NCBI GenBank assembly: GCA_035999625.1
Contig: DASYGN010000082.1
Span: 111-64,110, forward strand
DNA: 64,000 nt
Direction of reading: 5' to 3'
Source of the DNA: Caulobacteraceae bacterium
GTDB lineage: Bacteria; Pseudomonadota; Alphaproteobacteria; Caulobacterales; Caulobacteraceae
In this document: positions 1-56,471 of the stretch, in pieces
How positions within the stretch are numbered: the first letter of the stretch is position 1
Layout of the letters: every line of letters starts with the position of its first letter
Translations under genes and position numbers: made by a program
The notes under the pieces: generated by a model
What the model saw: the letters and a program-made list of their open reading frames with translations, nothing else
Databases searched by the model: none
Told to the model about the DNA's origin: nothing

Positions 1-116
1 TCGTGGTCATGGACGCCGGCAAGGTGGTCGAGATCGGCCGCCACGGCGAGCTGATGGCCAGGGGCGGCCTCTACGCGCGCCTGGCGCGCCTGCAGTTCGG
101 CGCGGCGGCGGCCTAG
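1..116 (+). CDS. ABC exporter ATP-binding protein, C-terminal fragment (5' part outside window)
   Basis: Frame 3 is open from the window edge to TAG at 114-116. The translation [32 protein letters not shown] is the usual C-terminal tail of MsbA/NdvA-type ABC exporter ATPases. Confidence 0.6.
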
Positions 117-1048
117 GCCGCCAAGGCCGCATTCGCGCGGGTGCGGAAGACGATCGACAGCGCCAGGGCGAGATTGAGCACGGTGAGCTCGAACACGAAG
201 AACCACAGCGGATTGCCGGCGAGGACGGCCAGAAAGGCGACCAGGGTGCGGGTGTTGGAGTCCAGCACTCCGCTGGCCTTGACCAGGGGCGCGAAGCGAC
301 GGCGGTAGAGATCGCGGGTTTCCGCCGACATGACGGTTTCGGCGGCCGGCTCGCCAGGGCTGAGGGCGCTGGAGACGCCGATGTAGAATCGGGACAGCAC
401 CGCGCCCAGGCCCTGGCCGGCCCCGGTCTGGCGCATCCACGGCGCGCCATAGACGAAATGGCGATAGGCCTTGCGCCCGGTCTCGTAGGCGTTGGCCTGG
501 ACGAAGTGCGAGGCTCCGGCGGCGCTGGCCAAGACCCACACCCAGGGCCCGAAACGCGCCTGGGCGGCAATGGCGAAGGCGACGTAGATCAGCACCTGCG
601 CGGCATGGTCGCACACCCCGTCGATGAGCTCGCCCAGCGGCGAGGCGCGTCCGGTGCGGCGGGCGAGATCGCCATCGGCGCCGTCGAGCACATGCCAGAG
701 GTATTGCAGCGCCAGGCCAATGAGAGCGTTCGCCGGCCAGGCCAGGCCGACATAGGCCAGCGCCGCGCCGCCGGCGGCGACCACCCCGGCCACCGAGACC
801 TGATTGGGGCTCACCGGCGTCCTGGCCAGCAGCCCGGCCAGGGCGCGGGAGGCCGGGTGCACCAGATAGAGGTTGCTGGCCGCTTCGATCTCGCGCGGGC
901 GGCCAGGCGCCGGCGCCGGGGGCGGCGTCTCGATGGCGATTGCTGCGGCTGGCGCCTTGGTGTCCACGGGAGGGTCGTATATGGCAGTCTTGTGACGGTA
1001 GGCGAGACTGCGATAGCGTGAATCGCGCGGGGGACCGCCTGCTCCCAA
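113..1048 (-). CDS. CDP-alcohol phosphatidyltransferase family membrane protein (DIPP-synthase / inositol-phosphotransferase-like)
   Basis: [27 protein letters not shown] matches the D-G-x2-A-R-x8-G-x3-D-x3-D family signature, and the protein has multiple hydrophobic helices. The segment [20 protein letters not shown] resembles the N-terminal lead-in of DIPP-synthase-type enzymes. The ATG at 1048 leaves only 28 bp to the divergent gene, so an internal GTG (967 or 862) may be the true start. Confidence 0.85.
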
Positions 1049-1076
1049 TCAATCACTCCCTCGAGGGGCTTCGAGT

Positions 1077-2948
1077 ATGGCTAAGATTCGCGTGGCGATC
1101 GTCGGTGTCGGCAACTGCGCCAGTTCACTGGTCCAGGGCGTCGCCTATTATCGCGCCGCCAACGACAACAGCGCCGGGCTGATGCACTGGAGCCTGGGCG
1201 GCTTCGAGCCCAGCGACGTCGAGTTCGTCCTCGCCTACGACATCGACGAGCGCAAGGTCGGGCAAGACCTATCCCGGGCCATCTTCGCCAAGCCCAACTG
1301 CACGGCGGTGTTCGCCGAGGTGCCCGATTCGGGGCTCAACGTGCGCATGGGCAAGGTTCTGGACGGCATGGCCGACCACATGGAGACCATGCCCGCCGAG
1401 CGCAGCTTCGTGAAGGCCAAGGCGGCCGAGCCGGACAAGGCCGCGGTCATCGAGGCCCTGCGCGCATCGGGGACCGAAGTTCTGATCAACTTCCTCCCCG
1501 TCGGCTCGGAGGACGCGGTCAAATTCTACATGGACTGCGCTCTTAAGGCCGGCGTTGGGGTGGTCAATTGCATGCCGGTGTTCATCGCCTCCGATCCGGA
1601 ATGGGAGGCGAAGTTCAAGGACGCCGGCCTGCCGATCGTCGGCGACGACATCAAGGCCCAGTTCGGGGCCACCATCGTCCACAGGGCGCTGACCAACCTG
1701 ATGCGCCAGCGCGGCGTGCGCATGGATCGCACCTATCAGCTCAACACCGGCGGCAACACCGACTTCCTCAACATGATGGATCGCGGCCGCCTGCTGTCGA
1801 AGAAGATCTCCAAGACCGAGGCGGTGCAGTCGGTCATGGCCAAGCGCCTGGAGGACGAGAACATCCATGTCGGCCCGAGCGACTATGTGCCGTGGCTGAA
1901 CGACAACAAGCTCTGCTTCCTGCGCCTCGAGGGGGCGCTGTTCGGCAATGTGCCGATGAACATAGAGGTCCGCCTGTCGGTGGAGGATTCGCCCAATTCA
2001 GCGGGGGTGGTGATCGACGCCATCCGCTGCTGCAAGCTGGCGCTAGACCGCGGCTACGCCGGGCCGCTGATCGGCCCCTCGGCCTTCTTCTGCAAGCATC
2101 CGCCGATCCAGTTCACCGACGATGAAGCCGAGCGGATGACCAACGCCTTCATCGATCGCGCCTCGCGGCCGGGGGCCAATCAATCGCTGGTCAGGGCGGC
2201 GGACGCCAATCCGGACGCGGCCGCTTCCGGGACCGGCATGCAAGGTCTGATCATCGCCGCCGGCCAGGGCATCCGCATGCGCGATGTGGCCCGTTCCAAG
2301 CCGCTGGCGCTGATCAATGGCGTGCCGCTGATCGAGCGGGTGATCGTTACCGCCCACAAGGCCGGCGTGTCCCGCTTCGTGGTCGTCACCGGCTATGAGG
2401 GCAAGCGCCTGGAGACCTTCCTCGTCGGCCTTTCCGCGCGGCTTTCGATTCCGATCCAGACGGTGCGCAATTTCGCCTGGAAGGGGGCCAACGGCCTTTC
2501 GGTGGCCGCCGCCGAGGCCCACCTCGACGACCGCTTCGTGCTGATGATGGCCGACCATCTCCTGGATCCGACCATCCTTGCCGATCTGATCGCCTCCGAG
2601 GCCGGGACCGAGGAGCTGGTGCTGGCGGTCGACCGCCGGCTGGGCAATCCGCTGGTCGACCTCGAGGATGTCACCCGGGTGGCCATCGACGAGCACGGCC
2701 GTATCGCACGCATCGGCAAGCTGATGAGCGGCCATGACGCCTACGACACCGGGGTCTTTCTGGCCTCAAAGGCGCTGATCGCGGCGATCCGCGAGGATGT
2801 CGAGGCCGGCGGCCAAGGCGGCCTCAGCGATGGCGTGCGCTCCCTGGCGGCCAAGGGCCTGGCGCGCACGTTCGACATCGGCGACCGCTTCTGGCTCGAT
2901 GTCGACGACGGCGTCGCCCACGGCCACGCCGAGCAGCTCTGCGCCTAA
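1077..2948 (+). CDS. Fusion protein: myo-inositol-3-phosphate synthase (N-terminal, about aa 1-365) plus nucleotidyltransferase / CTP:inositol-phosphate cytidylyltransferase-like domain (from aa 388)
   Basis: The N-terminus MAKIRVAIVGVGNCASSLVQGV, with later GDDIKAQFGAT and LNTGGNTDF blocks, is typical of bacterial/archaeal-type MIPS. After an Ala/Pro-rich linker, an in-frame ATG at 2238 opens GLIIAAGQGIRMR...KPLALINGVPLIERVI (G-x-G-x-R nucleotidyltransferase P-loop), ending FWLDVDDGVAH as in IPCT domains. No stop codon separates the two halves. Confidence 0.85.
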   Translation: MAKIRVAIVGVGNCASSLVQGVAYYRAANDNSAGLMHWSLGGFEPSDVEFVLAYDIDERKVGQDLSRAIFAKPNCTAVFAEVPDSGLNVRMGKVLDGMADHMETMPAERSFVKAKAAEPDKAAVIEALRASGTEVLINFLPVGSEDAVKFYMDCALKAGVGVVNCMPVFIASDPEWEAKFKDAGLPIVGDDIKAQFGATIVHRALTNLMRQRGVRMDRTYQLNTGGNTDFLNMMDRGRLLSKKISKTEAVQSVMAKRLEDENIHVGPSDYVPWLNDNKLCFLRLEGALFGNVPMNIEVRLSVEDSPNSAGVVIDAIRCCKLALDRGYAGPLIGPSAFFCKHPPIQFTDDEAERMTNAFIDRASRPGANQSLVRAADANPDAAASGTGMQGLIIAAGQGIRMRDVARSKPLALINGVPLIERVIVTAHKAGVSRFVVVTGYEGKRLETFLVGLSARLSIPIQTVRNFAWKGANGLSVAAAEAHLDDRFVLMMADHLLDPTILADLIASEAGTEELVLAVDRRLGNPLVDLEDVTRVAIDEHGRIARIGKLMSGHDAYDTGVFLASKALIAAIREDVEAGGQGGLSDGVRSLAAKGLARTFDIGDRFWLDVDDGVAHGHAEQLCA

Positions 2949-2973
2949 GAGGCCACCCCTGACCGCCGCCTGA

Positions 2974-4215
2974 TCAAGCCGCCGCGGTCTGCGGCTCCAG
3001 CACCACCTGCGGGGCGCGGCGTCCGGCGCGGGCCAGGGCGGCCTGCTCGATGAACAGATGGCCGTAGGCCTCGACCATGCGTTCGATGTCGAACATCGCC
3101 GCCCGCGCCGGCCCGGCGGCGGCTAGGCGCGCGGTCAGCGCGGGTTGGCGGAGGAGATGGTCCATGGCCGCGGCGAAGGCTTCGGTGTCGTTCGGCGGCA
3201 CGATCCAGCCGCTCTGGCCATGATCGACCACCTCGGCGGGGCCGAAGTCGCAGGCGGTGGCGAGCGCCGGGGCCCCGCAGGCCAGCGCCTCGACCAGTAC
3301 GCTCGGGAAACCTTCCCAGCGCGAGGGCAGGACGAACAGGGCCGCCTTGGCCATCCACGCCCAGGGGTTGGTGGTGAAGTCGACGAACCTCACCCGCTCG
3401 CCGAGCCCGAGCGCGCCGGCCTGCGCTTTCAGCTGCGCCTCGCGCGAGCCTCGTCCGATGATGACCAGATCGAGGCCCCGCGCCGCTGAGCTGGCCGCGA
3501 ACGCCGCCAGCAGCAGATCGTGGGCCTTCTGGTGCTCGAGCCGGCCGACGGCGAGCACGAACGGCCGCTCGGACGGCTGGTCGACGGGCGCGCCGGCGAG
3601 GCTCTGGATCCTGGCGATGTCGATGGGATTCTGCACCACCCGCATGCGGGCGTGATCCAGGCCCAGGCGCTGGCCGAGGCCGGCGGCCATCTCGTGCGAG
3701 TTGGCCAGAAAACAGTCGGCGTTGCGGTAGCAGCGCCGGGTCAGCCAGGCGATCAAGGTGCGGGCGGCGGGGCTGGCGAGCTCGTCCTCGATCACCGCGT
3801 CGGTGTTGTTGCCCTCGCGGGCGATCCATCTGGGCGCGCGCGCGCCCATGGCCCTGACCGCCGGCCAGGTCATCAGGCTGATGCCCTTGAGGAAGCTCAT
3901 CACCACGTGCGGGCGGTGGGCGGCGATCATGCGCGAGATGTTGAGCGGCGCCAGGGTGGCCCCGAGGATCAGCTTGTGCGGCCGATAGAAGCTGGCGTTG
4001 GCCCCTTCGTAAGCCAGCCAGTCCTGGCCGATCGGCGAGGCCATCACCCGCTCGGGATCGGCGTCGGCGAGGAATGGTCCGGCGCGACGCAGCAGGCCGA
4101 TGCGGATGTCGAACTGGTCGGGATCGCTGCGGTTCAGCAGGTGCACGGCCACCCGCTCGGCCCCGCCGCCATGCAGCGAGGAGAGCAGCAGCATGACGCG
4201 CAGCTTTCCGGTCAT
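2974..4215 (-). CDS. Glycosyltransferase family 4 (GT-B, PimA-like class)
   Basis: N-terminal RVMLLLSSLHGGGAERV plus C-terminal PSRWEGFPSVLVEALACGAPALAT (the E-x7-E region of GT4 enzymes). The ATG at 4215 (MTGKLRV) is preceded by GGAGAGG. The ORF track starts 21 nt upstream at a GTG (4236). Confidence 0.85.
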   Translation of the reverse strand: MTGKLRVMLLLSSLHGGGAERVAVHLLNRSDPDQFDIRIGLLRRAGPFLADADPERVMASPIGQDWLAYEGANASFYRPHKLILGATLAPLNISRMIAAHRPHVVMSFLKGISLMTWPAVRAMGARAPRWIAREGNNTDAVIEDELASPAARTLIAWLTRRCYRNADCFLANSHEMAAGLGQRLGLDHARMRVVQNPIDIARIQSLAGAPVDQPSERPFVLAVGRLEHQKAHDLLLAAFAASSAARGLDLVIIGRGSREAQLKAQAGALGLGERVRFVDFTTNPWAWMAKAALFVLPSRWEGFPSVLVEALACGAPALATACDFGPAEVVDHGQSGWIVPPNDTEAFAAAMDHLLRQPALTARLAAAGPARAAMFDIERMVEAYGHLFIEQAALARAGRRAPQVVLEPQTAAA

Positions 4216-4303
4216 GCTATGCCCCGTCCTCTCCACCGACCCGCAAGCGGCTTCTAGCCGCCCCGGGCGCGGCGAGGCAACGACCTATCTGGCGGGGTGA
4301 GTT

Positions 4304-5404
4304 TTGACGGCGATGGAGTTGCTGGTCGGCGCCGACGCCTTCTGGGCCCGCGCCAGCGCCGATAGCGCCGCCGCCCGGCGCCGGCTGCTGGTGCAGGCGA
4401 TGACCTTCGAGGGCGACGGGGTCGGCCAGGCCGTGGCTCGGGCGATCAGGGGAAGTCCGGCCGCCGATCGCCGGGTGCTGGTGGACGGATACACGCGGAT
4501 GGTGGTCTCCGATCGCTGGGTCGCGGCGTCGTGGTTCAACCCGGCCCTGCGCGGCGAGGTGGCGGCGACGCGGGCGATGTTCGACCACCTGGCGGCGCAG
4601 GGCGTCGGCGTGCGGGTGACCAATCCGGTCAGTCCGCTGCTGACCAACTATCCGGCCCGCAACCACAAGAAGCTGATCGTCGCCGACGATGTCGCCTACA
4701 TCGGCGGGATCAATTTCAGCGACCACAATTTCGCCTGGCGGGATTTCATGCTGCGCCTGGAGGGCCGGGCGACGGCGGACTTTCTGGCCGCCGATTTCGC
4801 CGCTACCTGGTCCGGCCGCCCCGTGGCCGCCGACACCGCGTTCGACACTCTCGCTCTGATCAGTCTCGACGGGCGCACCAATCAACGCTTCTACGAGACC
4901 ATGGCCGAGCGCATCGGGCGGGCGAGGCGCGAAGTCGTGGTGCTCTCCGCCTATCTGACCTTTCCCTTCACCGCGCCGCTGGCCGAGGCGGTGCGCCGCG
5001 GGGTCGAGGTGAGCCTGATCACCCCGTGGGCGAGCAACAAACGGCTGGTGCGCGACTATCTGCTGGATTTCGCCCGCCGCGCCGGCCTTCGCGTGCACCT
5101 GCTGCCCAAGATGAGCCATCTCAAGGGCATGCTGATCGACGGGACCGAGCTCATCGTTGGCTCGTGCAACTTCGATTTCGCCGGCCTTGCCGGCGAGGAG
5201 GAACTGGTGGCGGTGATCGACGAGCCGGCGCTGATCGCCGATTTTCGCGCCCGCATCATCGCCCCGGCGCTGGCCGCCGCCCTGGCGGACGCCAGGCAGG
5301 TCTCGCCTCTGGCCGGCGCCCTGGCTCACGCCGGCTTGCGCATCGGCGATGCCGTGGCGAGGTTGGCGGGGACCTCCCGGCGGACGGCGGTGGACTGGCG
5401 CTAG
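4304..5404 (+). CDS. Phospholipase D superfamily protein with two HKD motifs (cardiolipin/phosphatidylserine-synthase-like)
   Basis: First HKD is NHKKLIVADDVAYIGGINFSDHN and second is SHLKGMLIDGTELIVGSCNFD. No signal peptide or TM segment is evident. The start is TTG 4304 or ATG 4313. Confidence 0.8.
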   Translation: MTAMELLVGADAFWARASADSAAARRRLLVQAMTFEGDGVGQAVARAIRGSPAADRRVLVDGYTRMVVSDRWVAASWFNPALRGEVAATRAMFDHLAAQGVGVRVTNPVSPLLTNYPARNHKKLIVADDVAYIGGINFSDHNFAWRDFMLRLEGRATADFLAADFAATWSGRPVAADTAFDTLALISLDGRTNQRFYETMAERIGRARREVVVLSAYLTFPFTAPLAEAVRRGVEVSLITPWASNKRLVRDYLLDFARRAGLRVHLLPKMSHLKGMLIDGTELIVGSCNFDFAGLAGEEELVAVIDEPALIADFRARIIAPALAAALADARQVSPLAGALAHAGLRIGDAVARLAGTSRRTAVDWR

Positions 5405-6354
5405 GCCGCGGCCAGCCTCTGGCGGCCGCGCCAGGCGTCGAGGATGCTCGCTTGATGGACGCAGCTGACGGTGCAGAAGGGCGCGCAGGCCTTGGCGGTG
5501 TCGAACTCGCGCAGGATGTCGGCGCGGCCGTAATCGGCCAGCGGCACGCCAGGATGGCCGCGCTGCTGCGAGCAATAGTGCACCAGACCGTCCTCGCAGA
5601 TGTAGAGATAGCGGGCCCCGGCCCGGCAATGCCAGCCGTTGGGCTTGCCGGCCATGAGATTCTTTTGGAACATCAAATAGTTGATTAGATGGGTGACCGA
5701 CCCGGCGGCCATCAGCGAGGCATAGACGGCGCGTTGCGAGGCCGACAGTGGGGCCAGCGTTCCCTCGCCGTCGTGCAACACCCCTACGGTGTGCGAAAAG
5801 CCCATCGCCTTGGCGCTCCTGGCCACTTCCAGGGCGTCCCGGGTGCGCTCCTCGGAGATGCCGAGCACCGAGTTGATGTTGACCGGAAACTGGGCGTGCT
5901 TTTCCAGCAGGCGCAGCTTGCCGGCCAGGGATTTCAGGGTCTTCTTCGAAATCGCATCCGGCTTCACCCCGTCGATGGAGATCTGCAGGCCCTGCAGTCC
6001 GGCGGCGTTCATGCCGGCGATCTTGGCGGCGGTGAGCAGGAAGCCGTTGGTGATCGTCGTCGCCACCATGCCGTGGGCGCGGATGCGGCGCACGACCTCG
6101 TCATGGCCGGGATGCGATAGCGGCTCGCCGCCGGTCAGGGTGACGATCTGGGCGCCCAGCGCCGCCAGCGCGTCGACGCGGGCGGTAAGCTCAGCGACCG
6201 GGACCGGCTTGGAGACCTTGTCGTACTCGCTGCAATAGGCGCACTCGAGATTGCAGTAGCGGGTGATGACCAGGTGGGCGAGCAGCGGCCGGCCCTTGTC
6301 GGCCAGCACCCGCGCCGCCAGCTTCACACTGTCCCCAAGAGTGACGCCCGGCAT
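5401..6354 (-). CDS. Radical SAM enzyme with C-terminal SPASM/twitch-like cysteine cluster
   Basis: CNLECAYC is a CxxxCxxC radical SAM cluster near the N-terminus, and TLTGGEPL is the SAM-binding GGE motif. C-terminal WHCRAGARYLYICEDGLVHYC followed by CAPFCTVSC looks like an auxiliary Fe-S (SPASM-type) domain. A GGGGAGG Shine-Dalgarno sits upstream of the ATG. Confidence 0.85.
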   Translation of the reverse strand: MPGVTLGDSVKLAARVLADKGRPLLAHLVITRYCNLECAYCSEYDKVSKPVPVAELTARVDALAALGAQIVTLTGGEPLSHPGHDEVVRRIRAHGMVATTITNGFLLTAAKIAGMNAAGLQGLQISIDGVKPDAISKKTLKSLAGKLRLLEKHAQFPVNINSVLGISEERTRDALEVARSAKAMGFSHTVGVLHDGEGTLAPLSASQRAVYASLMAAGSVTHLINYLMFQKNLMAGKPNGWHCRAGARYLYICEDGLVHYCSQQRGHPGVPLADYGRADILREFDTAKACAPFCTVSCVHQASILDAWRGRQRLAAA

Positions 6355-6387
6355 ATGGCTTCCTCTGCCTCCCCTTCAGCCGCACAA

Positions 6388-6858
6388 TTAGGGGTAGCGC
6401 AGGCGAACGTGCAAGGTGGTCTCCGGTCCACGGGCCTCGAACTTGACCTGATCGTACTTGGGCGCGGCGAACATCAGGTGCGGATTGTCGGAAAAGCCGA
6501 AGCCGTCGAAACGACCGAACAGGTTGTGGTGGAACACGCCGCTCGAATCCGGGTCGTGATAGACGGCGAAGGCGTAGGTCCCCGGTCCCCACTTCAGCCA
6601 GATGCACATGTGGGTGGTAGGACTGACCGCGGGCACGCTCCACACCTTGACCGCGCCGTCCTTGACCAGGAACTGGCTGCGATCGCCCGGATAGAGCGAG
6701 CCGGTGATCAGGCCGCGCGAGGCGCGCACCCCCTCGATATCGATGTCGAGACGGGTCGGCCCCGGCTGGCCTTGGCAGGTGCTCTGGGCGTGGCCGGCCG
6801 AGGGGCAAAGGAGCGCCAACGGCGCCGCCAGAGCGGTGACGGAGGAACGAAGCTGCAT
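6388..6858 (-). CDS. Secreted DUF2141 family protein
   Basis: Signal peptide MQLRSSVTALAAPLALLCPSAGHA. Family-typical blocks are present: GVRASRGLITGSLYP, YAFAVYHDPDSSG, and FGRFDGFGFSDNP (the GFSN-like end). Confidence 0.75.
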   Translation of the reverse strand: MQLRSSVTALAAPLALLCPSAGHAQSTCQGQPGPTRLDIDIEGVRASRGLITGSLYPGDRSQFLVKDGAVKVWSVPAVSPTTHMCIWLKWGPGTYAFAVYHDPDSSGVFHHNLFGRFDGFGFSDNPHLMFAAPKYDQVKFEARGPETTLHVRLRYP

Positions 6859-6918
6859 GGTCCTTGCTGATTCTTGTGCGCGCCGGCGATGACGAGCGCC
6901 CGGCGCTGTTCGGCCGGC

Positions 6919-7917
6919 TTATGCCACGGCTGGAGCCGCCTGGCCATGCTGGACGATGTCGGCGTGGGCCTGCGCGATGATGTCGACGGAGTGTCGCCGC
7001 GCGGCGTGGTCGAAGATGCTGGAGGTGACCATGATCTCATCGGCCCCGGTGCGGGCGATGAAACTGGCCAGTTTTGCGCGCACCGTATCGGGCCCACCGA
7101 CGATGGCTTCGGCGAGCGGGCCCTCCAGGCGCGCCTCGATGTCGTCCACCGGCGCCCGCAGCGGGCCGGGATGGCCGGCGCGTAGGGCGATGAAGGACTG
7201 AATGAGGGACGTGAACAGGCGCCGGGCCTCGGCGTCGGTGTCGGCGGCGACGATGGTGAGGCCAAGCAGGAGGCAGGGCTTGGCCAGCCGCTCGGAAGGC
7301 TGGAACTGGGCGCGGTAGATGGCGACCGCTTCGTCCAGCTGCGCCGGGGCGAAGTGCGAGGCGAAGGCGTAGGGCAGGCCAAGCACCGCCGCCAGCTGGG
7401 CGCCGAAGGTGCTCGAGCCCAGGATCCACACCTCCATCTCGGCCCCGGACCCCGGCACTGCGCGCACCATCTGGCCCTCCCGGACCGGGGCCAGGAAGCG
7501 CAGCAGCTCGACCACGTCGCTGGGGAAGCTCTCCGCGCCGCCGGCCAGATGGCGGCGGAGCGCGCGGGCGGTCATGGCGTCGGTCCCCGGCGCCCGGCCA
7601 AGACCCAGATCGACCCGGCCGGGATAGAGCGCCGCCAGGGTGCCGAACTGCTCGGCGATGATCAGCGGCGCGTGGTTGGGCAGCATCACCCCGCCGGCGC
7701 CGATGCGAATGCTGCTGGTGCCGGCGCCGACGAAAGCCAGGGCCACGGCGGTGGCGGCGCTGGCGATCCCCGGCATATTGTGGTGCTCGGCCATCCAGAA
7801 GCGATGGTAGCCGAGCGCCTCGGCGTGGCGGGCGAGATCGAGACTGCGGCGCAGCGCCTCGCCGGCGTCACCGCCCTCGACGATCGGGGCCAGATCGAGG
7901 AGCGAAAGCCTGGTCAT
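6919..7917 (-). CDS. LLM-class (luciferase-like) flavin-dependent oxidoreductase
   Basis: [16 protein letters not shown]...[24 protein letters not shown] is the characteristic N-terminus of YhbW-type LLM proteins. The ATG at 7917 is chosen over the upstream ORF-track start. Confidence 0.8.
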
Positions 7918-7951
7918 GGCGCCAGATATAGGGGGCTCGTTGTCGGCGCGC

Positions 7952-8611
7952 ATGGATAGCCGCGGCCGGCCCGGCTATGACGGTGGCGTGACTGTATGGG
8001 ACATCAGCCAGACCTTGCGCCCGGGCCTGCCGGTGTGGCCGGGAGACACCGCCTTTTCCGGCGCCCGGCGCTGGGTCCAGGGCGATGGCTCGCCGGTGAC
8101 CGTCTCGCACTTCGCCACCACGGTGCACGCCGGGACCCACGCCGACGCGCCGCTGCACTACGATCCGGCCGGGAGCGACGCCGCCGGCGTGCCGCTGGCG
8201 GCCTACATCGGCCACTGCCGGGTGGTCGACGCCAGGTCCGCCGGGCGGGTGATCGGGGCCGATTTCCTCGCCGCGCGCCTCACCGAGCCGCCACCCAGAG
8301 TGCTGTTCCGCACGTTCGAGCGCTTTCCGGCCGATGCGTGGCCAAGTGCTTTCACCGCTATCGCCGCCGAGGCCATCGCCGTCTTGGCCGCGCGCGGCGT
8401 CATTCTGGTGGGCATCGATTCGCCATCGCTGGATCCTGAGCGTTCCAAGACCATGGACGCCCACCGGGCGGTCCTGGCGGCCGACATGCGGGTGCTCGAG
8501 GGTGTGGTGCTGGATGAGGTCCCGGAGGGCGATTACGAGCTCATCGCCCTGCCGCTGAAGCTCGCCGGCCTCGACGCCTCGCCGGTGCGCGCGGTGTTGC
8601 GGTCCCGATGA
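7952..8611 (+). CDS. kynB: Kynurenine formamidase (cyclase family)
   Basis: [20 protein letters not shown] and [12 protein letters not shown] motifs. The stop overlaps the kynureninase start (ATGA). The start is uncertain: ATG 7952 or GTG 7988. Confidence 0.75.
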
Positions 8612-9834
8612 TCCCGGAGAGGATAAAGGCGCTCGACGCCGCCGATCCGTTGCGCCCCTTCCGAGGCCGCTTCGCCCTGCCGGCGGGGGTCATCTATCTC
8701 GACGGCAATTCGCTGGGCGCCCTGCCGCTCGCGGCCAGGGACGCTCTGCTGAAGACGGCGGCGACCGAGTGGGGCGAGGGGCTGATCCGCAGCTGGAACG
8801 ACGCTGACTGGATCGGCGCGCCGCTGCGCGTCGGCGACAAGATCGCCCGGCTGATCGGCGCTTCGCCCGGCGAGGTGGCGGTGGCCGACTCGACCTCGGT
8901 CAACCTTTACAAGCTGCTGGCCGCGGGCCTCGCCGCCCGGCCCGGACGCCGGGTGATCCTGACCGAGACCGGCAACTTCCCCACCGATCTCTACATCGCC
9001 GGCGGCGCGGCGGGCGCAGTCGGAGCCAAGGTCAAGGCGGTCGCGCCCGAAGCGGTGGAGGCGGCGATCGACGAGGAGATCGCCATCGTCCTTCTGACCC
9101 ACGTCCACTACAAGACCGCCGCGCGGCGCGACATGGCGCGGATCACCGCCGCCGCGCACGCCGCCGGGGCGTTGATGCTCTGGGATCTCAGCCACAGCGT
9201 CGGCGCGGTCGAGGTCGATCTGGACGCCTGCGGCGCGGATCTGGCGGTCGGCTGCGGCTACAAGTACCTGAACGGCGGGCCCGGCGCGCCGGCCTTCCTG
9301 TTCGTGGCCAAGGGTGTGCAGGATGAACTGGCCTCGCCGCTGACCGGCTGGATGGGTCACGCCGCGCCGTTCGCCTTCGATGACGCCTGGTCGCCCGCCG
9401 CCGGCATCAAGCGGTTCCTGACCGGGACGCCGCCGGTGCTCGGCCTGGCGGCGCTGGAGGCGGCGGTGGACCTGGCCCTCGAGGTCCCGCCGGCGGCGCT
9501 GGAGGCCAAGGCCCGGGCGCTGTGGTCGCTGTTCGCCGACACCATGGCCGAGAGACTGGGCGGCGAGGATTTCCGCCTGATCACGTCCGCCGACCCGGCG
9601 CGCCGCGGCAGCCACATCGCCTACGCCCACGCCGACGGCTTTGCGATCATGCAGGCCCTGATCGACCGCGGCGTGATCGGCGATTTCCGCGATCCCGACG
9701 TGATGCGCTTTGGCCTCACCCCGCTCTATCTCGGCTTCGAGGACGTCTGGCGCGCGGTGGATATCCTCAGCCAGATCATGGCCAGCGGGGCCTGGCGAGA
9801 GGCGCCCCCGCGCCGTCCGGGCCAAGTGACGTGA
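8608..9834 (+). CDS. kynU: Kynureninase (PLP-dependent)
   Basis: 408 aa with IYLDGNSLGALP near the N-terminus and WDLSHSVGAVEVDL...GCGYKYLNGGPGAPAF (PLP-lysine region), typical of bacterial kynureninase. Confidence 0.85.
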   Translation: MIPERIKALDAADPLRPFRGRFALPAGVIYLDGNSLGALPLAARDALLKTAATEWGEGLIRSWNDADWIGAPLRVGDKIARLIGASPGEVAVADSTSVNLYKLLAAGLAARPGRRVILTETGNFPTDLYIAGGAAGAVGAKVKAVAPEAVEAAIDEEIAIVLLTHVHYKTAARRDMARITAAAHAAGALMLWDLSHSVGAVEVDLDACGADLAVGCGYKYLNGGPGAPAFLFVAKGVQDELASPLTGWMGHAAPFAFDDAWSPAAGIKRFLTGTPPVLGLAALEAAVDLALEVPPAALEAKARALWSLFADTMAERLGGEDFRLITSADPARRGSHIAYAHADGFAIMQALIDRGVIGDFRDPDVMRFGLTPLYLGFEDVWRAVDILSQIMASGAWREAPPRRPGQVT

Positions 9835-14518: not shown

Positions 14519-16999
14519 TCAGTATTTCACCCGCACGGTCAGACCGTAGAAGCGCGGCTGGCCGGGGAAGTAGTAGTAATTGTTCAGCGCCGCGTCGGAA
14601 CCAGGCTGCGGAGCGCTGAAGGTCTGGACCACGCCATCGAAGATCGCCTGGCTGTAGTGGGTGTTGAAGATGTTGGTCGCCCAGGCCTCCAGCGACCAGT
14701 GGCCATTTTCCGAGCCGATGGCCAGGCGGCCGTTGAACAGCGCGTAGGCTGGCTGGGTCTTGACCGGATCGTGGTCGGAGCCGGTGTTGTAGGCCGACTG
14801 GAACTTGCCGTTGAAGTTGATCGTCGCCTTCAGGCCATTCATCACCGGGTGGCTGTAGGTGACGCCGCCGACCACCGACCACACCGGCGCGAAGCTGGGG
14901 TGCGAGCCTGGCAGGCGGAACAGGGGCGTCGTCTGGAAGAAGGGCGAGCCGGGGATGTTGTTGCCGAGCGCGGCCTGGTTGGCGGCGCTCTTGCTGTAGA
15001 CGGTGTTGGCGTAGGTGGCCCCGAAATTGAGGGTCAGGTCGTCGGTGGCCCGCCAGTAGTCCTCGGTCTCGATGCCTTCGGACAGCGCGTCAGGAATGGT
15101 GCTCTCGACGAACTGGGTGCCGGTGAAGGCGTTCAGCTGGAAGTTCTGGTACTTCTGGTAGAAGGCGGCGGCGGTCAGGAGCAGCCGGCGGCCGAGGAGT
15201 TCCGATTTCGCCCCGACCTCGAAGGCGTTGACGTATTCGGCCGGGAAGAAGGTGTCGGGATCGGGGGCCAGCGAGGCGTTGGGATTGTTGCCCACCGCCG
15301 TGGTCACTTCGGCCAGATTGTAGCCGGCCACGAGACTGCCTCTGGAGTAGGAAGCGTAAGCCATCGTCTCATTGGTGAAATGATAGGTCAGCTTGGCGGT
15401 GCCGGTGACGTCGTTTTCGGTGAACGACTGGTGGGTGTTGAGACCAAAGAAGGCCGGATTATCCAGGCAGGGGATGCCGAGGACGGCCTTGGTCAGCGGC
15501 AGGCCGAGGCCGGCGGCGATGGCGGTGAAATGGGCGCAGGTGCCGGCGGTGTCGGTGTTGTTGTAGTTGCTGAGCAGTGACTTGTGCTCGCTGGTGAAGC
15601 GGATGCCGCCGGTGAAGATCAGCTTGTCGGTGATCTTGAAGTCGTCCTGGGTGTAGACCGACAGGCTGTGCTCGGCCTGGTGATAGGCGTCGCGGGCGCC
15701 CACGCCGGCCGGGAAGGCGCCGCCGGGCGGGTTGTAGGTCCCGGTCGCCAGCGGTCCTGCGCCTGAGGTCAGGACGGCGAGATATTCGTTGATGTCGGTC
15801 CCGAAGCTCAACGGGGCGAAGACGTCGAGATCCTCGTGGCTGTAGAAGGCGCCGACTTGCCAGGCGATGCGCCCGGTGTCGCCATTGAGCCTGATCTCCT
15901 CGGAGAACTGCTTGAATTCCTGGACGTTGTCGGGAACCGTATTGATCAGGTCGGCCTGGGTGTAGTCGCTGTCGGTGATGCCCTTGTCGCGCCAGTCGCG
16001 CAGGGCGGTGATCGAGGTCAGGTGAGCGCCGCCGAGCCAGGGCGTTTTCCAGTCCATTTGCGCCGAGATGCCTTCGTCGCGGATGTGCTCCTGGGGTCCG
16101 ACATTGATCGAGGCGGTGACATTGCTGCGGGTGATCGGATTGAGGATCGATCCCGGGAAGAAGGTGTTCTGCAGGGTGGCCGGAAAGCCGTTCTGGAAGT
16201 CGACCGCGACGCAGCAGTGGTCGTCGCGCCGGGTGTAGTCGCCGATGATGTTGAGCTTGAAATCGTCGGTGGGCGCGATCAGCAGCTGCCCGCGCAGCGT
16301 GTACATGTGCTCGTCGTCCTGCGCCGGAATGGTGCTTCCCGGCGGCTGGGCGACGGGCAGGTAGCCGTCGCGCTGGTGGGTGGCGAAGTAGAGCCGTCCG
16401 GCGACGACATCGCCGATGATCGGCCCGGTGACGCCGGTATCGAACCCCCAGCCATTGTAGTTCTGGACTTCCGCGTCGGCGAAGGCGCCGAAGGTGAACG
16501 ACGGCCGCTGGGTGTTGATCTGGACCACGCCGGCGACAGTGTTCTTGCCGAACAGCGTGCCCTGTGGCCCTTTCAGGATCTCGACGTCGGAGAGCTCGCC
16601 AAGGTCGTTGTAGCTGACCCCGTTGCGCGGCCGATAGACGCCGTCGATGTAGACCCCAACCGCGTCTTCCAGACCGGCGTTGTCGGCCACGCTGCCGATG
16701 CCGCGGATGCGCACCGTGGTGGTGGACTCGCCGGCGTTGGTGGTGGCGTTGAAGCCCGGCGTCAGCAGGGTGATGTCCTTGATGCTGCGGGCGCCGAGAT
16801 TTTCGAGCTGCTGGGCGTTGATCACCGAGACCGCCACCGGCACGTCCTGCAGGCGCTGCTCTCGCTTCTGGGCGGTGACGATCACCTCCGAGACGGCGAC
16901 CGGGCCCGCCGCGGCGGCGTTGGCCGCCAGCGCCGCAGGCGCGCTCATGCACAGTGAAACAGCCGCGGCCGAGGCGCCGCACAGCAGCTTGGCGTTCAT
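14519..16999 (-). CDS. TonB-dependent outer-membrane receptor
   Basis: Signal peptide MNAKLLCGASAAAVSLCMSAPAALA, plug motifs (VIVTAQKREQRLQDVPVAVSV; EILKGPQGTLFGKN), a long beta-barrel region, and a C-terminal aromatic residue. The ATG at 16999 is chosen. Confidence 0.9.
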   Translation of the reverse strand: MNAKLLCGASAAAVSLCMSAPAALAANAAAAGPVAVSEVIVTAQKREQRLQDVPVAVSVINAQQLENLGARSIKDITLLTPGFNATTNAGESTTTVRIRGIGSVADNAGLEDAVGVYIDGVYRPRNGVSYNDLGELSDVEILKGPQGTLFGKNTVAGVVQINTQRPSFTFGAFADAEVQNYNGWGFDTGVTGPIIGDVVAGRLYFATHQRDGYLPVAQPPGSTIPAQDDEHMYTLRGQLLIAPTDDFKLNIIGDYTRRDDHCCVAVDFQNGFPATLQNTFFPGSILNPITRSNVTASINVGPQEHIRDEGISAQMDWKTPWLGGAHLTSITALRDWRDKGITDSDYTQADLINTVPDNVQEFKQFSEEIRLNGDTGRIAWQVGAFYSHEDLDVFAPLSFGTDINEYLAVLTSGAGPLATGTYNPPGGAFPAGVGARDAYHQAEHSLSVYTQDDFKITDKLIFTGGIRFTSEHKSLLSNYNNTDTAGTCAHFTAIAAGLGLPLTKAVLGIPCLDNPAFFGLNTHQSFTENDVTGTAKLTYHFTNETMAYASYSRGSLVAGYNLAEVTTAVGNNPNASLAPDPDTFFPAEYVNAFEVGAKSELLGRRLLLTAAAFYQKYQNFQLNAFTGTQFVESTIPDALSEGIETEDYWRATDDLTLNFGATYANTVYSKSAANQAALGNNIPGSPFFQTTPLFRLPGSHPSFAPVWSVVGGVTYSHPVMNGLKATINFNGKFQSAYNTGSDHDPVKTQPAYALFNGRLAIGSENGHWSLEAWATNIFNTHYSQAIFDGVVQTFSAPQPGSDAALNNYYYFPGQPRFYGLTVRVKY

Positions 17000-17083
17000 G
17001 GTTCGACTCCCCGTTGACCTAGGCGCGCTCTTCAACGGCGGCCTAAGGTTCGCGACCAATGCTGGGGCCGAACTTCCCCATGG

Positions 17084-18724: not shown

Positions 18725-19692
18725 GACTGCCCCAGCCGCCAGCCGGCTTCCGTGGCCATATGGGCGAAGAAGCCGGGTTCGTAGGCATGCTCGGGATCGG
18801 CCCGCACCAGGGTGTCGATGACCTCGGCGTCGTGGCCGACCAGAATCCGCCAGCGATCGGTCCTCACCCCGTCGAGAATGACGGTGGCGGCCCGCGCCGC
18901 GGTGGTCGGGGCCTCGTCGCGAAAACGCCTGGCCTGCTCGGCGGCCATGGCGTTGATCTCGGCGTCGGAGACGGCGTCGATTTCCATGCCCATCGCTCTC
19001 AGGCGCGCGCGGGTGAGCGCGATCTGGCGTGGCGAAAGGCTGTCGGACGCATCGCCGGTCAGCACCTTGCGGGAGTTGCTGACGATCTCGGTGCCGATGT
19101 GGCCGGGCATGACCACCGAGCACTTCACGTGCGGGGCGTTGACCGCCAGATCGGTCATCAAGGCTTCGCTGAAGCCCTTCACGGCGAACTTGGCGGCCAC
19201 ATAGGCGGTGTGGGGAATGCCGGGGCCGAGGGAGCCCCAGAAGCCATTGACGCTGCTGGTGTTGACGATGTGCGCCTCGCTCGCCGCCACGAGCATGGGC
19301 AGGAACACCCGGGTGCAGGCGTAAACCCCGCCCCAGCAGACGTTGAACGTCCGCTCCCATTCGGCGCGCTCGCCGGCGACGAAGCTGCCGCCGCCGCCGA
19401 TGCCGGCGTTGTTGAACAGCAGGTGGATCCTGTCGGTGTCAAACGCGCGGGCGATCTCGTCGCGGAAGCGGCCGACCTGGGCTTCGTCGCCGACGTCGGC
19501 GACGAAGCCCGCCACCTTGGTTCCCTGGGGCGCGTCGGCCGCGCACAGAGCCTTGGTGGCGGCCATGGTGTCAGCCGAGACATCGCACATGGCGACGTTG
19601 CACCCCTCGGCGGTCAGCTGCCGGGCCAACTCGCGCCCCATGCCGGTCCCGCCGCCGGTGATCACCGCGATCTTGCCGTTGAAATCCTTCAT
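18721..19692 (-). CDS. Short-chain dehydrogenase/reductase (SDR)
   Basis: MKDFNGKIAVITGGGTGMGRELA (TGxxxGxG), NNAG, and YVAAKFAV (YxxxK). The ATG at 19692 is chosen; the upstream part of the 456-aa ORF looks non-coding. Confidence 0.85.
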   Translation of the reverse strand: MKDFNGKIAVITGGGTGMGRELARQLTAEGCNVAMCDVSADTMAATKALCAADAPQGTKVAGFVADVGDEAQVGRFRDEIARAFDTDRIHLLFNNAGIGGGGSFVAGERAEWERTFNVCWGGVYACTRVFLPMLVAASEAHIVNTSSVNGFWGSLGPGIPHTAYVAAKFAVKGFSEALMTDLAVNAPHVKCSVVMPGHIGTEIVSNSRKVLTGDASDSLSPRQIALTRARLRAMGMEIDAVSDAEINAMAAEQARRFRDEAPTTAARAATVILDGVRTDRWRILVGHDAEVIDTLVRADPEHAYEPGFFAHMATEAGWRLGQS

Positions 19693-19846
19693 CGCGTTCT
19701 CCGCTTTCCGATGCCGACCACCGTTTAGGACAAATTGGCCACAGAGCGAGGCCCGATTGGGGCTTTGCGCCAAGCGGCGCCTTGACGATCGCCGGCGCAG
19801 GCGCGAGATCAGCACATCAAGGCTAAATGCCCGGGGGAATACCATC

Positions 19847-22318
19847 ATGAAGACCGCGCTCATGTCGCGTTTCGTGGGTGTCGCGCCCGCGGGCGTCGCG
19901 ATGCTGCTTGCCTCCACCTGCCTGACCGCCGGCCCTGCCCGCGCCGCCGAGGCGAGCACCGACACTGTCGGCCCCACCGCGGTGGGCGAGGTCATCGTCA
20001 CCGCCACCAAGCGCGCCGAGAATATCCAGAAGGTGCCGATGAGCATCACCGCCATCGACGCCAGGCGGCTGAGCGAACTCAACGTGACCAACTTCCAGGA
20101 CTATGTGAAGTTCGTGCCGACGATCCAGTACGAGACCTTCGCCCCCAGCGTCACCACCATCTACATGCGCGGCGTGGCCGACGGCGGCAACGGCAACCAC
20201 TCGGGCCCGCTGCCCAGCGTCGGCGCCTATCTCGACGAGCTGCCGATCACCACCATCGGCGGCACCATCGACGTCCACGTTTATGACCTGGCTCGTGTGG
20301 AAGTGTTGCCGGGACCGCAAGGCACGCTCTATGGCGCCAGCTCCGAATCCGGCACCCTCCGCCTGATCACCAACACGCCCGACACCTCGCACCTCTATGG
20401 CGCCCTCAACGCTGAGGGGAACTGGGTCGATCACGGCTCGGAGGGTTATGTCGTCGAGGGCTTCGTCAACGTACCGGTGACCGACCACATCGCCGTGCGC
20501 CTGGTGGCGTTCGACGAGCGCGATGCCGGCTTCATCGATAACGTGCTGGGCGAGCGGGCGTTCGTCGAAGTATCGCACGGAGTGCCCGGACCGGTGGACG
20601 GCATCATCAACAACGCCGGTCGGGTGAAGAGCAACTTCAATCCGGTCGAGACCTACGGCGGTCGGCTCGCGGTCAAATTCGACCTCGGCGACAACTGGAC
20701 GATCACCCCACAGGTCATCGCCCAGGATATGCGGGCCGACGGCATTTTCGGCTTCAACCCGGCGATCGGCGATCTGAAGGTCAATCGCTTCCAGCCCGAC
20801 AGCGACCACGACCGCTGGGTGCAGGCGGGCCTGACCATAAACGGCAAGATCGGCAAGTACGACCTGACCTACGCCGGCGGCTACTTCAAGCGCTGGATCA
20901 ATTCCAATTCGGACTACACCGACTACTCGGTCGCCTATGATCAGGCCTCCGGCTACGGATCCTACTGGACGGACGCCAACGGCGTTCCGCTGTCGAACCC
21001 GGCGCAGTTCATCGTCGGCCGGGACCGGTTCGAAAAGGGCAGTAACGAACTGCGGCTTGCTTCGCCTGCTACTGACCGGTTCCGCTTTCTTGTCGGCCTG
21101 TTCCAGGAACGCCAGACCCACTGGATCATCCAGGACTATCTGATCCAGGGCCTCGGCCCGCAAATCTCCGTCCCGGGCTGGCCCCACACCTGGTGGCTGA
21201 CCGACCAGGACCGGGTCGACAGCGACAGGGCGGTGTTCGGCGAAGTGTCGTTTGACGTCACGCCCAGGCTGACCATCACCGCCGGCGCCCGCTATTATGG
21301 CTTTACCAATTCGCTCTATGGCTTCTTCGGATTCAACGATCCGGCCTTCAGCTCGACCGGCACCTCCCACTGCATCGCCGGCCTGCAGTTTCGCGATGCG
21401 CCGTGCGTCGACTTGAACGGCGTCCTGAAAGGGACCGGCGAGACGCACAAGGTCAACGCCACCTACCACCTCGACGACACCAAGCTGGTCTATTTCACCT
21501 ATTCGACCGGCTACCGGCCGGGCGGATTCAACCGCAACTCCCAGTTCGGCGCCTACAATACCGACAACCTGTCCAACTACGAGATCGGCTGGAAAACGAG
21601 CTGGTTCGACCGCTCCCTGGTCTGGAACGGCGCCGCCTATTACGAGGACTGGAGCAACTTCCAGTTCGCCTATCTAGGCACCAACAGCCTTACCGTCGTG
21701 GTCAATGCGCCGTCGGCCCGGATTCTCGGCGTCGAGTCCAACGTCGAATGGCGCGCGACCGAGCACCTGACCCTGGCGGCCGCCATGGCCTACAACGACG
21801 CCGTGCTGGCCCAGGACTTCTGCACCGACGCCCACGGCACGGTGGCGGCCTGCGAGGGCAATTTCCTTAGGGCGCCGAAGGGTCAGCAACTGCCCTACAC
21901 GCCGAAATTCAACGGCAATTTCACCGCCCGCTACACTTTCCCGTTCATGGGTTGGAACGCCCACGCCCAGGTGGCGGTGGCCTATCAGTCGTCACGGCTT
22001 CCGGCGGTGTTTTCGGTGGCGTCGGACGCCTTCGCCAGCGATGTCGCCAACCTCGGCAAGATGCCCGGCTATGCGACCGTCGACTTCTCGATCGGCGCCG
22101 AACACGACAAGAGCTCGGTCGAGCTGTTCGTGAAGAACGCCTTCGACGAGCGCGGCCAGATCAACCGCTATACGCCGTGCACGACCTCGATCTGCGCGCC
22201 CGGCTATCCGGCCGGCGTGGGCTCCGACGGAACGCCTTACCCGGCGACCCCGCCGGCGGTCTATGTGGTGCCCATTCAACCGCTGACCATCGGCATCCGG
22301 CTCGGCCAGAAGTTCTGA
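19847..22318 (+). CDS. TonB-dependent outer-membrane receptor
   Basis: Signal peptide MKTALMSRFVGVAPAGVAMLLASTCLTAGPARA, plug motifs (VIVTATKRAENIQKVPMSITA; EVLPGPQGTLYGASS), and terminal LGQKF. The ATG at 19847 is chosen within a longer ORF. Confidence 0.9.
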   Translation: MKTALMSRFVGVAPAGVAMLLASTCLTAGPARAAEASTDTVGPTAVGEVIVTATKRAENIQKVPMSITAIDARRLSELNVTNFQDYVKFVPTIQYETFAPSVTTIYMRGVADGGNGNHSGPLPSVGAYLDELPITTIGGTIDVHVYDLARVEVLPGPQGTLYGASSESGTLRLITNTPDTSHLYGALNAEGNWVDHGSEGYVVEGFVNVPVTDHIAVRLVAFDERDAGFIDNVLGERAFVEVSHGVPGPVDGIINNAGRVKSNFNPVETYGGRLAVKFDLGDNWTITPQVIAQDMRADGIFGFNPAIGDLKVNRFQPDSDHDRWVQAGLTINGKIGKYDLTYAGGYFKRWINSNSDYTDYSVAYDQASGYGSYWTDANGVPLSNPAQFIVGRDRFEKGSNELRLASPATDRFRFLVGLFQERQTHWIIQDYLIQGLGPQISVPGWPHTWWLTDQDRVDSDRAVFGEVSFDVTPRLTITAGARYYGFTNSLYGFFGFNDPAFSSTGTSHCIAGLQFRDAPCVDLNGVLKGTGETHKVNATYHLDDTKLVYFTYSTGYRPGGFNRNSQFGAYNTDNLSNYEIGWKTSWFDRSLVWNGAAYYEDWSNFQFAYLGTNSLTVVVNAPSARILGVESNVEWRATEHLTLAAAMAYNDAVLAQDFCTDAHGTVAACEGNFLRAPKGQQLPYTPKFNGNFTARYTFPFMGWNAHAQVAVAYQSSRLPAVFSVASDAFASDVANLGKMPGYATVDFSIGAEHDKSSVELFVKNAFDERGQINRYTPCTTSICAPGYPAGVGSDGTPYPATPPAVYVVPIQPLTIGIRLGQKF

Positions 22319-42112: not shown

Positions 42113-42167
42113 GATCTCGCCTGTGGTGAGAGAAGGGTTTCGCGGTCTGGTGCGCGGCGCACGACCG

Positions 42168-42842: not shown

Positions 42843-43050
42843 CTTAATCCCTCCACCGAAGTCACCGCGGGAAATCGCCCGTGCGATGAACTGGAGGCCA
42901 GGGGACGGACGTTCGCATCCTGACCCCCATTCGGGGCCGGAACGCCGGCCGATCGCCTATCGTTCCGGTTGGCCGGCGCAGGAACCCGGGCCGGCCCCGG
43001 CGGTTATCGGAAAGCCCGGGCGGGCCGGAGCGCAGGATCGCGGCGGATCA

Positions 43051-46574: not shown

Positions 46575-46580
46575 GTCGGC

Positions 46581-53420: not shown

Positions 53421-53439
53421 GGCGGCCCGCGGTGGCGCG

Positions 53440-54621: not shown

Positions 54622-54644
54622 ATGTTCGGGAGGTAGGGGCCTAG

Positions 54645-56471
<1,827 letters not shown>

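Follow-up and report, generated by a model that had tools for sequence, protein, structure and literature searches.

To which acceptor does a bacterium pass its inositol-phosphate when it couples inositol-3-phosphate synthase (MIPS) to a cytidylyltransferase and sets a membrane transferase beside the pair? The question is raised by the left end of a 64,000-nucleotide stretch of the Caulobacteraceae contig DASYGN010000082.1, which we call the window (G+C ~70%). Here, a gene that fuses MIPS to a domain resembling CTP:inositol-1-phosphate cytidylyltransferase (IPCT) faces a gene for a CDP-alcohol phosphotransferase. With moderate confidence, we favor the reading that the two genes are the headgroup module of a bacterial sphingolipid pathway and would place inositol-phosphate onto ceramide. 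The domain identities, a complete catalytic motif, the gene context and the conservation of that context were read directly from the sequences. The likelihoods worded below are our own estimates and were not computed.

The fusion protein and the facing transferase

The module consists of the following features:

113..967, minus strand: CDP-alcohol phosphotransferase of the "window-type" subfamily, 284 aa from the GTG at 967 chosen by gene callers (PF01066 match and motif)
1077..2162, plus strand: MIPS domain, fusion residues 1-362 (TIGR03450, PF01658 and 1GR0 matches)
2160..2240, plus strand: linker, fusion residues 362-388 (low pLDDT, DNA alignment)
2241..2948, plus strand: IPCT-like cytidylyltransferase domain, fusion residues 389-623 plus the stop codon

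The open reading frame (ORF) at 1077-2948 on the plus strand is unbroken and encodes the 623-aa fusion of both domains. Residues 4-359 matched TIGR03450 over its full length (442.8 bits, model positions 1-355 of 355), and the same half scored 121.1 bits against Pfam PF01658 (Inos-1-P_synth), passing the gathering cut-off of 27, and 395 bits against the Ino1 structure of Mycobacterium tuberculosis (1GR0). The TIGR03450 model, geared to Actinobacteria, has an NCBIfam equivalog cut-off for mycothiol-type INO1 of 638 bits, and the fusion scores below it. Stand-alone MIPS of bacteria and archaea share 60-69% identity with this half. The domain contains the N-terminal NAD-binding glycine motif, and its GVGNCAS, QLNTGGNTDF, SKKxSKT and DSPNSAG motifs, which we take to be catalytic, are invariant in 16 diverse family members.

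The C-terminal half matched Pfam NTP_transf_3 with 55.7 bits. Its best NCBIfam match was the IPCT half (profile positions 1-206) of the Thermococcales IPCT/DIPP synthase (DIPPS) family NF041135, with 89.8 bits over residues 388-611, as opposed to 60.6 bits for the next family. Three solved IPCTs (2XME, 4MND and 4JD0) aligned with the domain end to end (domain residues 4-227 of 239; 56-59 bits, E ~1e-14 to 1e-15), and the next solved relative was MurU, at an E-value of 5e-7. The nucleotide-binding loop, AAGQGIRMR...SKPL, follows the pattern AAGxGxR...KPL and aligns with the loop of the solved IPCTs; residues A394, A395, G396, G398, R400, K408, P409 and L410 are invariant in the family. The Arg and Lys equivalents of loop residues R16 and K26 of the T. 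maritima IPCT (PMC12275187) are present. MIPS was fused or directly adjacent to the cytidylyltransferase in every locus examined (~45, from several phyla), and with this indirect support we infer that the C-terminal half acts on inositol-1-phosphate and CTP.

E-values of the matches reached 1e-133, and the G+C content at third codon positions was 0.86-0.89 in both facing ORFs. The predicted structure of the fusion shows two folded domains joined by a disordered linker (residues 362-386, pLDDT <50), with a pTM of 0.55 and no confidence in the packing of the domains against each other.

The transferase gene is divergent from the fusion gene (head-to-head), with 29-110 bp between them; its ORF stays open as far as a TTG at 1048 (113..1048, minus strand; 311 aa). 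The protein scored 37.5 bits against Pfam PF01066 (CDP-OH_P_transf) and contains the complete motif D-x2-D-G-x2-A-R-x8-G-x3-D-x3-D. Its AlphaFold model (pLDDT 90.6) is all-helical, with ten helices, and the top Foldseek matches of the model were AF2299 (4O6M), CEPT1 and PgsA1 (probability 1.00). By sequence, AF2299 was again the best solved relative, followed by CEPT1 and CPT1, both CDP-choline/ethanolamine:diacylglycerol transferases. These results bear out the initial annotation, made from the letters of the window, which had described a 623-aa ORF joining MIPS-type and IPCT-like halves and a head-to-head membrane protein with the full CDP-alcohol phosphatidyltransferase signature: profile and structure-library searches returned a full-length MIPS match, placed the C-terminal half nearest to IPCTs and identified the partner as CDP-OH_P_transf.

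The transferase fell below all NCBIfam subfamily cut-offs, scoring 50.9 bits against the archaetidylinositol-phosphate (AIP) synthase model NF040950 (cut-off 180), 34.7 bits against the phosphatidylinositol-phosphate (PIP) synthase model NF045883 (cut-off 170) and 24.1 bits against the DIPPS model NF041135 (cut-off 580). When all CDP-alcohol proteins from the fetched loci were clustered by similarity, a window-type cluster of 28 members emerged, mostly from Caulobacterales and Sphingomonadales, with others from Emcibacter, further Alphaproteobacteria and one Marinimicrobia. A DIPPS/AF2299-type cluster of 18 members was separate from it; these proteins either are fused to IPCT beside MIPS (in Nitrospina, Planctomycetota, Gammaproteobacteria, Bacteroidetes, Deferribacteres and one Thermoplasmata archaeon) or are second copies in some Sphingomonadales. 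Judged by these scores and clusters, the transferase belongs to a distinct subfamily and is not a DIPP, PIP or AIP synthase. The MIPS-based scan and look-ups yielded 28 window-type transferases, none more than 7 kb away from MIPS and IPCT genes, and both genes were present in four of four loci fetched via the transferase alone.

The sphingolipid locus and the conservation of the module

By its gene content, the window starts at the right-hand edge of a Caulobacter-type sphingolipid locus. The left-hand context was taken from a near-identical contig (locus L001; GCA_036560965.1, DATBQF010000028.1), where the following genes lie to the left of the transferase gene, counted outward:

First: MsbA-related ABC exporter (702.8 bits), overlapping the 3' end of the transferase gene
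Second: fatty acyl-AMP ligase (784 bits, above the cut-off of 600)
Third: epimerase-family reductase (CerR)
Fourth: acyl carrier protein (ACP)
Fifth: serine palmitoyltransferase (Spt; 660.5 bits, above the cut-off of 500)
Sixth: fused LptF-LptG, 763 aa
Seventh: beginning of a gene that shares 55% identity with a 384-aa, weakly GNAT-like gene in the ceramide operon of locus L088

The seventh gene, as a relative of the 384-aa protein of L088, probably encodes a bacterial ceramide synthase (bCerS-like). A matching gene set has been defined for ceramide synthesis and sphingolipid export in Caulobacter (PMC9393093, PMC11324152, bioRxiv 10.64898/2026.04.12.717747). The NCBI label of the metagenome-assembled genome (MAG) containing L001, "Methylosinus sp.," looks doubtful; the named nearest relatives of the locus are labeled Caulobacteraceae, Caulobacterales, Phenylobacterium or Alphaproteobacteria.

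We compared loci obtained from one scan of GTDB species representatives and from homologue look-ups, reading them by tblastn and ORF structure. Four Caulobacterales loci (L009, L010, L011 and L090) keep the full arrangement from LptFG to the DUF2141 gene that ends the cluster on the right, while the shared stretch runs from the transferase to radical SAM in L016 and from LptFG to the fusion in L089. In a second alphaproteobacterial lineage (L088), a 55% identical fusion ends a row of genes transcribed in one direction, AasR-CerR-ACP-Spt-fatty acid hydroxylase-bCerS-like-fusion, which is preceded by genes for DUF2141, LptF, LptG and a window-type transferase (38% identical, full length). Spt adjoins a true fusion in L012, and an LptFG paralogue adjoins the module in L025 and L077. 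The gene next to the transferase encodes an MsbA-like exporter in the window lineage and a Wzx-type flippase in Marinimicrobia and Emcibacter.

In Sphingomonadales, the MIPS, IPCT and transferase genes are adjacent. Cultured carriers include Sphingomonas ginsenosidimutans KACC 14949, S. jeddahensis G39, S. citri RRHST34, S. gellani S6-262, S. rubra CGMCC 1.9113 and Sphingomonas sp. 7/4-4, as well as Novosphingobium sp. JCM 18896 (L085) and PS1R-30 (L091). When a Novosphingobium transferase was the query, JCM 18896, PS1R-30 and N. piscinae were the only members of the genus named among the best 120 of 1440 matches. The core common to all loci comprises MIPS, IPCT and the transferase only, with DUF2141 a frequent companion.

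Several loci of Sphingomonadales or Emcibacter (L020, L025, L029, L041, L085 and L091) carry a second, DIPPS/AF2299-like CDP-alcohol transferase of 370-450 aa beside the window-type one. In the two Novosphingobium loci, a second NTP transferase and a HAD hydrolase (HAD phosphatase) are encoded as well. The additional transferase, NTP transferase and HAD genes of Sphingomonadales suggest a headgroup that is more elaborate or doubly substituted.

The initial annotation had placed a CDP-inositol pathway "outside its usual hosts," which was an overstatement: MIPS lies beside an IPCT-like gene in many mesophilic phyla, and Rhodothermus marinus and Caulobacter provide parallels. An IPCT-DIPPS-type fusion was found 3' of MIPS in the non-thermophile MAGs L013, L024, L028, L030, L047, L051, L062 and L074, and such fused proteins of other phyla matched NF041135 over its full length with 296 bits. 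The classical architecture for synthesis of di-myo-inositol phosphate (DIP) is widespread beyond hyperthermophiles.

An identical MIPS-IPCT fusion protein occurs on 12 contigs, including one MAG from NCBI and three or more metagenome assemblies from JGI, and the window is a strain variant (99.5% identical) with one synonymous change in the fusion gene. The presence of the same protein in independent assemblies and in a strain variant rules out an assembly artefact as the source of the fusion. Most related loci encode MIPS and the cytidylyltransferase in two separate genes, often in-frame with a single stop between them, or overlapping. The nearest species representatives (81-86% identical) have two adjacent genes, with MIPS ending in ...RVAAQ (stop) and the next gene starting with V(Q/K)(G/A)LIVAAG. 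DNA alignment with L009-L011 and L016 revealed an insertion of ~14 nt 5' of the old stop in the window lineage. As a result, the frame was shifted past the ancestral stop, and a 26-residue linker is read into the old start, MQGLIIAAGQG. According to this alignment, the linker descends from what used to be the end of MIPS, together with the spacer between the two genes.

True fusions were also found in Marinimicrobia, Rhodospirillales and Nitrospinaceae, and two-domain proteins, whose linkers differ, make up ~90 of the best 120 database clusters. A search of the whole library of representatives with the fusion returned mostly stand-alone MIPS. Since the genes are separate in close relatives and fusions recur elsewhere, the conserved trait is tight MIPS-IPCT coupling, with the fusion as its recurrent variant. 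The fusion arose recently, by a recurrent kind of joining between two genes that are translationally coupled, and is dispensable for the pathway, although it may channel inositol-phosphate from one active site to the other. The observation, made at the outset, that this fusion order is uncharacterized holds, but the unusual architecture was overstated: the fusion is common and evolutionarily labile.

To the right of the fusion gene lie four further genes:

2974..4236, minus strand: GT4 glycosyltransferase (Pfam Glycos_transf_1, 142.6 bits)
4304..5404, plus strand: phospholipase D (PLD)-superfamily, ClsB-like protein (PLDc_2, 85.2 bits; ClsB model, 67.8 bits, below the cut-off of 281)
5401..6354, minus strand: radical SAM protein, 317 aa (Pfam Radical_SAM, 66.2 bits)
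6388..6858, minus strand: DUF2141 protein (Pfam DUF2141, 60.6 bits)

The GT4, PLD and radical SAM genes are accessory genes confined to the Caulobacterales clade, where each is kept in L009-L011, L016 and L090; L089 has GtrA and GT2 genes instead of GT4. Both HKD motifs are readable in the PLD-superfamily protein. The GT4 protein could possibly glycosylate the inositol lipid. The DUF2141 protein has an N-terminal hydrophobic, signal-peptide-like stretch (identified by eye) and no solved relative in the PDB (best E-value 0.1). Its gene lies beside the module in L009-L011, L025, L031, L085, L088, L090, L091 and L092, which represent Caulobacterales, Sphingomonadales and another alphaproteobacterial lineage, and it may be a fourth component of the module. 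GT4 and radical SAM genes beside the fusion of L087, a distant lineage, were considered as a conserved link and dropped, as they are not orthologous to those of the window. A scan of window positions 1-7000 for promoters and terminators gave no useful signal, and an Rfam scan found no family at gathering score anywhere in the window.

The acceptor of the inositol-phosphate

In the route we favor, the N-terminal half of the fusion would convert glucose-6-phosphate into L-myo-inositol-1-phosphate, and the C-terminal half would combine the latter with CTP to form CDP-inositol. The membrane transferase would then move inositol-phosphate from CDP-inositol to the C1 hydroxyl of ceramide, supplied by the adjacent Spt, ACP, CerR, acyl-AMP ligase and bCerS-like genes, with inositol-phosphoceramide and CMP as the products. 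The adjacent MsbA-like transporter would flip the lipid and the LptF/G paralogue would carry it to the outer membrane; glycosylation by the neighboring GT4 is a possible last step. The inositol-1-phosphate substrate of the cytidylyltransferase, the ceramide acceptor, the export and the glycosylation are the predicted parts of this scheme. It is very likely that the module forms CDP-inositol, and likely that the acceptor is a lipid; for ceramide or a ceramide derivative in particular, our confidence is moderate to fair. The genes lie inside a locus for ceramide synthesis and export and the transferase scores only 24 bits against DIPPS; therefore, we favor ceramide over inositol-phosphate as the acceptor. 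The initial annotation had proposed that CDP-inositol is made and inositol-phosphate passed to one of several acceptors; homology and context uphold this core, and the choice of acceptor, left open then, has narrowed, with ceramide favored.

The use of CDP-inositol as a lipid headgroup donor was demonstrated in R. marinus, in which a MIPS-IPCT-BEPIS operon-like set was described and BEPIS transfers inositol-phosphate from CDP-inositol to a lipid alcohol (Jorge et al. 2015, according to the account in PMC4587543). By that account, the initial annotation was out of date in treating a bacterial CDP-inositol lipid route as merely proposed from genomics. Compared by description, the window shares with R. 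marinus the clustering of MIPS, IPCT and a membrane CDP-alcohol-family transferase. It differs in that MIPS and IPCT are fused, and in acceptor and host: the R. marinus acceptor is described as dialkylether glycerol, in a thermophile of Bacteroidetes/Rhodothermaeota, whereas here we find a ceramide locus in a mesophile-type alphaproteobacterium. The abstract of Jorge, Borges and Santos (2015, Environ Microbiol 17:2492) reportedly noted homologues in Alphaproteobacteria.

A Bacteroides vulgatus/Prevotella cluster contains an NTP transferase, a CDP-alcohol transferase and a HAD gene beside MIPS; a CDP-inositol route, via PI-DAG (phosphatidylinositol [PI], diacylglycerol [DAG]) and subsequent HAD-catalyzed exchange, has been proposed for it and is unconfirmed (PMC9246714). 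The same study found no homology to the cluster in the alphaproteobacteria that it tested, and it reported an inositol-phospho-dihydroceramide-like lipid in Novosphingobium acidiphilum without candidate genes (PMC9246714). Our module resembles that cluster in that a CDP-inositol route to inositol sphingolipids, bypassing a PIP intermediate, is predicted for both, and in that the Novosphingobium versions contain a HAD gene; the window cluster itself differs in having none. The PI-dependent inositol-phosphoceramide (IPC) synthases, such as fungal AUR1 and Bacteroides BT_1522, have the same predicted product but belong to another enzyme family and use PI as the donor, as opposed to the CDP-inositol and CDP-alcohol phosphotransferase predicted here. 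To our knowledge, all IPC synthases use PI as the headgroup donor, and we know of no description of a CDP-inositol:ceramide inositol-phosphotransferase activity. The closest precedent known to us for CDP-alcohol chemistry on ceramide is the insect ceramide-phosphoethanolamine synthase. A literature search returned no paper that connects CDP-inositol modules to the sphingolipid loci of Alphaproteobacteria. What is new here is that the module lies in a sphingolipid setting; the role of CDP-inositol as a lipid headgroup donor was already known.

Among other explanations, it is unlikely, in our estimate, that the CDP-inositol goes to a glycerolipid (DAG or an alkyl or dialkyl glycerol) to give PI or an ether analogue, with any inositol sphingolipid arising by later exchange. 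The module sits among ceramide synthesis genes, or runs in the same direction as they do, in two or more alphaproteobacterial lineages; the window-type subfamily is largely limited to sphingolipid-producing orders, and no genes for glycerolipid or ether-lipid synthesis were recognized among the annotated neighbors. The characterized MIPS-IPCT-BEPIS operon of R. marinus, as described in PMC4587543, nevertheless follows the same three-gene logic, and conversion of CDP-inositol and DAG to PI was proposed by Heaver et al. for the B. vulgatus cluster with its HAD hydrolase (PMC9246714), a gene that the Novosphingobium loci also contain. CEPT1 and CPT1, the next-best solved relatives after AF2299, act on DAG. 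A PLD-like lipid enzyme also lies within the cluster, but PLD chemistry moves phosphatidyl groups and not inositol-phosphate (textbook enzymology). A route to the compatible solute DIP, in which the transferase would be a DIPP synthase acting on CDP-inositol and inositol-1-phosphate, is hardly credible. MIPS, IPCT and a CDP-alcohol enzyme do make up the DIP gene set, and in other phyla the same search found MIPS followed by the IPCT-DIPPS-type fusion mentioned above. Like the hyperthermophile IPCT/DIPP synthases (NF041135; 4MND, 2XME, 4JD0), the window has an IPCT homologue and a partner with the CDP-alcohol phosphotransferase fold and motif. However, MIPS, and not the transferase, is the fusion partner of its IPCT, the transferase itself is unlike DIPPS by score and clusters apart from DIPPS/AF2299-type proteins, and the context is lipid synthesis and export rather than solute synthesis, with the lipid exporter and ceramide genes flanking the transferase. 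There is no phosphatase gene in the window cluster, and some Sphingomonadales carry a separate DIPPS-like gene besides the window-type gene.

The C. crescentus sphingolipid locus offers a different headgroup. There, CpgD makes CDP-glycerate (PMC12275187), and CpgA, of the CDP-alcohol family, is required for the second phosphoglycerate on the sphingolipid (PMC12275187, PMC9393093). Compared by description, the two systems share both enzyme families, the kind of locus (spt, acp, cerR, acyl ligase and Lpt paralogues; PMC12275187, PMC9393093, PMC11324152) and the logic of making a soluble CDP-alcohol and then transferring the phospho-alcohol to a sphingolipid. IPCT is, moreover, the closest structural relative of CpgD, although the substrate of CpgD is phosphoglycerate. 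We consider it highly improbable, all the same, that our pair is a CpgD/CpgA orthologue handling a non-inositol phospho-alcohol such as phosphoglycerate, with the MIPS fusion incidental: the invariable fusion or adjacency to MIPS points to inositol-phosphate, the domain can be aligned along its full length with IPCTs proven by biochemistry and has IPCT as its best curated match, no cpgB or cpgC equivalents were seen near the window module, and no ceramide kinase (CpgB-type) gene was seen in the loci compared. It is also improbable, though less so, that the transferase bypasses free ceramide and adds inositol-phosphate to a sphingolipid that already bears a decoration, or to another membrane acceptor (for example, glycosyl-ceramide or a ceramide-phosphate derivative). 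CpgA sets a precedent in working on ceramide phosphoglycerate and not on ceramide (PMC9393093), the GT4, PLD-like and radical SAM genes are kept in the Caulobacterales cluster, and second transferases occur in Sphingomonadales loci; these accessory genes are, however, clade-specific, unlike the MIPS-IPCT-transferase core, and L088 has the core with ceramide genes only.

Several observations weigh against inositol-phosphoceramide as the product. No spt gene lies within 10 kb of the module in the Sphingomonadales loci, and where these carry extra genes the chemistry may be more complex. The genes at this locus alternate in strand, so co-transcription is not established. The Foldseek matches of the transferase to AF2299, CEPT1 and PgsA1 have TM-scores of ~0.5 and are generic family matches that do not separate lipid from soluble acceptors. 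BEPIS, the sole characterized CDP-inositol:lipid transferase, takes a glycerol ether lipid and not ceramide, and CpgD is a member of the cytidylyltransferase family with a non-inositol substrate. Inositol-phosphoceramide remains our preferred product. We see as evenly poised the broader proposal that window-type transferases are Kennedy-type inositol-phosphoceramide synthases (CDP-inositol:ceramide inositol-phosphotransferases), that the headgroup cassette is interchangeable and that it is the gene source for the Novosphingobium lipid.

Other genes of the window and the meaning of the module

Beyond the lipid cluster, the window contains the following:

7916-9834, plus strand: cyclase (kynurenine formamidase-like) next to kynureninase, directly after the lipid cluster
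14519-17059 and 19343-22318: TonB-dependent receptors
22358-24358: TPR-sulfotransferase
37518-48869: polysaccharide cluster with a Wzx-type flippase, GH16, an 814-aa AAA_31 protein, a Wzy-like polymerase/ligase and a GT2+GT4 protein (762 aa)
47520-47610, minus strand: 91-nt tRNA-Ala(GGC) called by ARAGORN inside the GT2/GT4 coding ORF, probably a false positive
52170-62438, plus strand: small non-ribosomal peptide synthetase cluster with genes for a flavin N-monooxygenase-like protein, an ATP-grasp protein, an A-T didomain protein, a P450, a C-A-T-TE protein (1380 aa) and a phosphopantetheinyl transferase

Sphingolipids are widespread in bacteria, where they replace or complement the lipopolysaccharide of the outer membrane, and only a minority of the enzymes that build their headgroups are known. 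If our reading is correct, the module would constitute a third, mechanistically distinct bacterial route to inositol sphingolipids, one in which the headgroup and not the lipid is activated. It would explain the inositol-phosphoceramide-like lipid of Sphingomonadales, which have neither of the Bacteroides-type pathways. The cassette would occupy the place of the phosphoglycerate (Cpg) genes of C. crescentus in the same kind of locus, and sphingolipid headgroups would be exchanged module-wise (CDP-glycerate or CDP-inositol) at a single conserved locus. This reading is directly testable, as several cultured Sphingomonas and Novosphingobium strains carry the genes.

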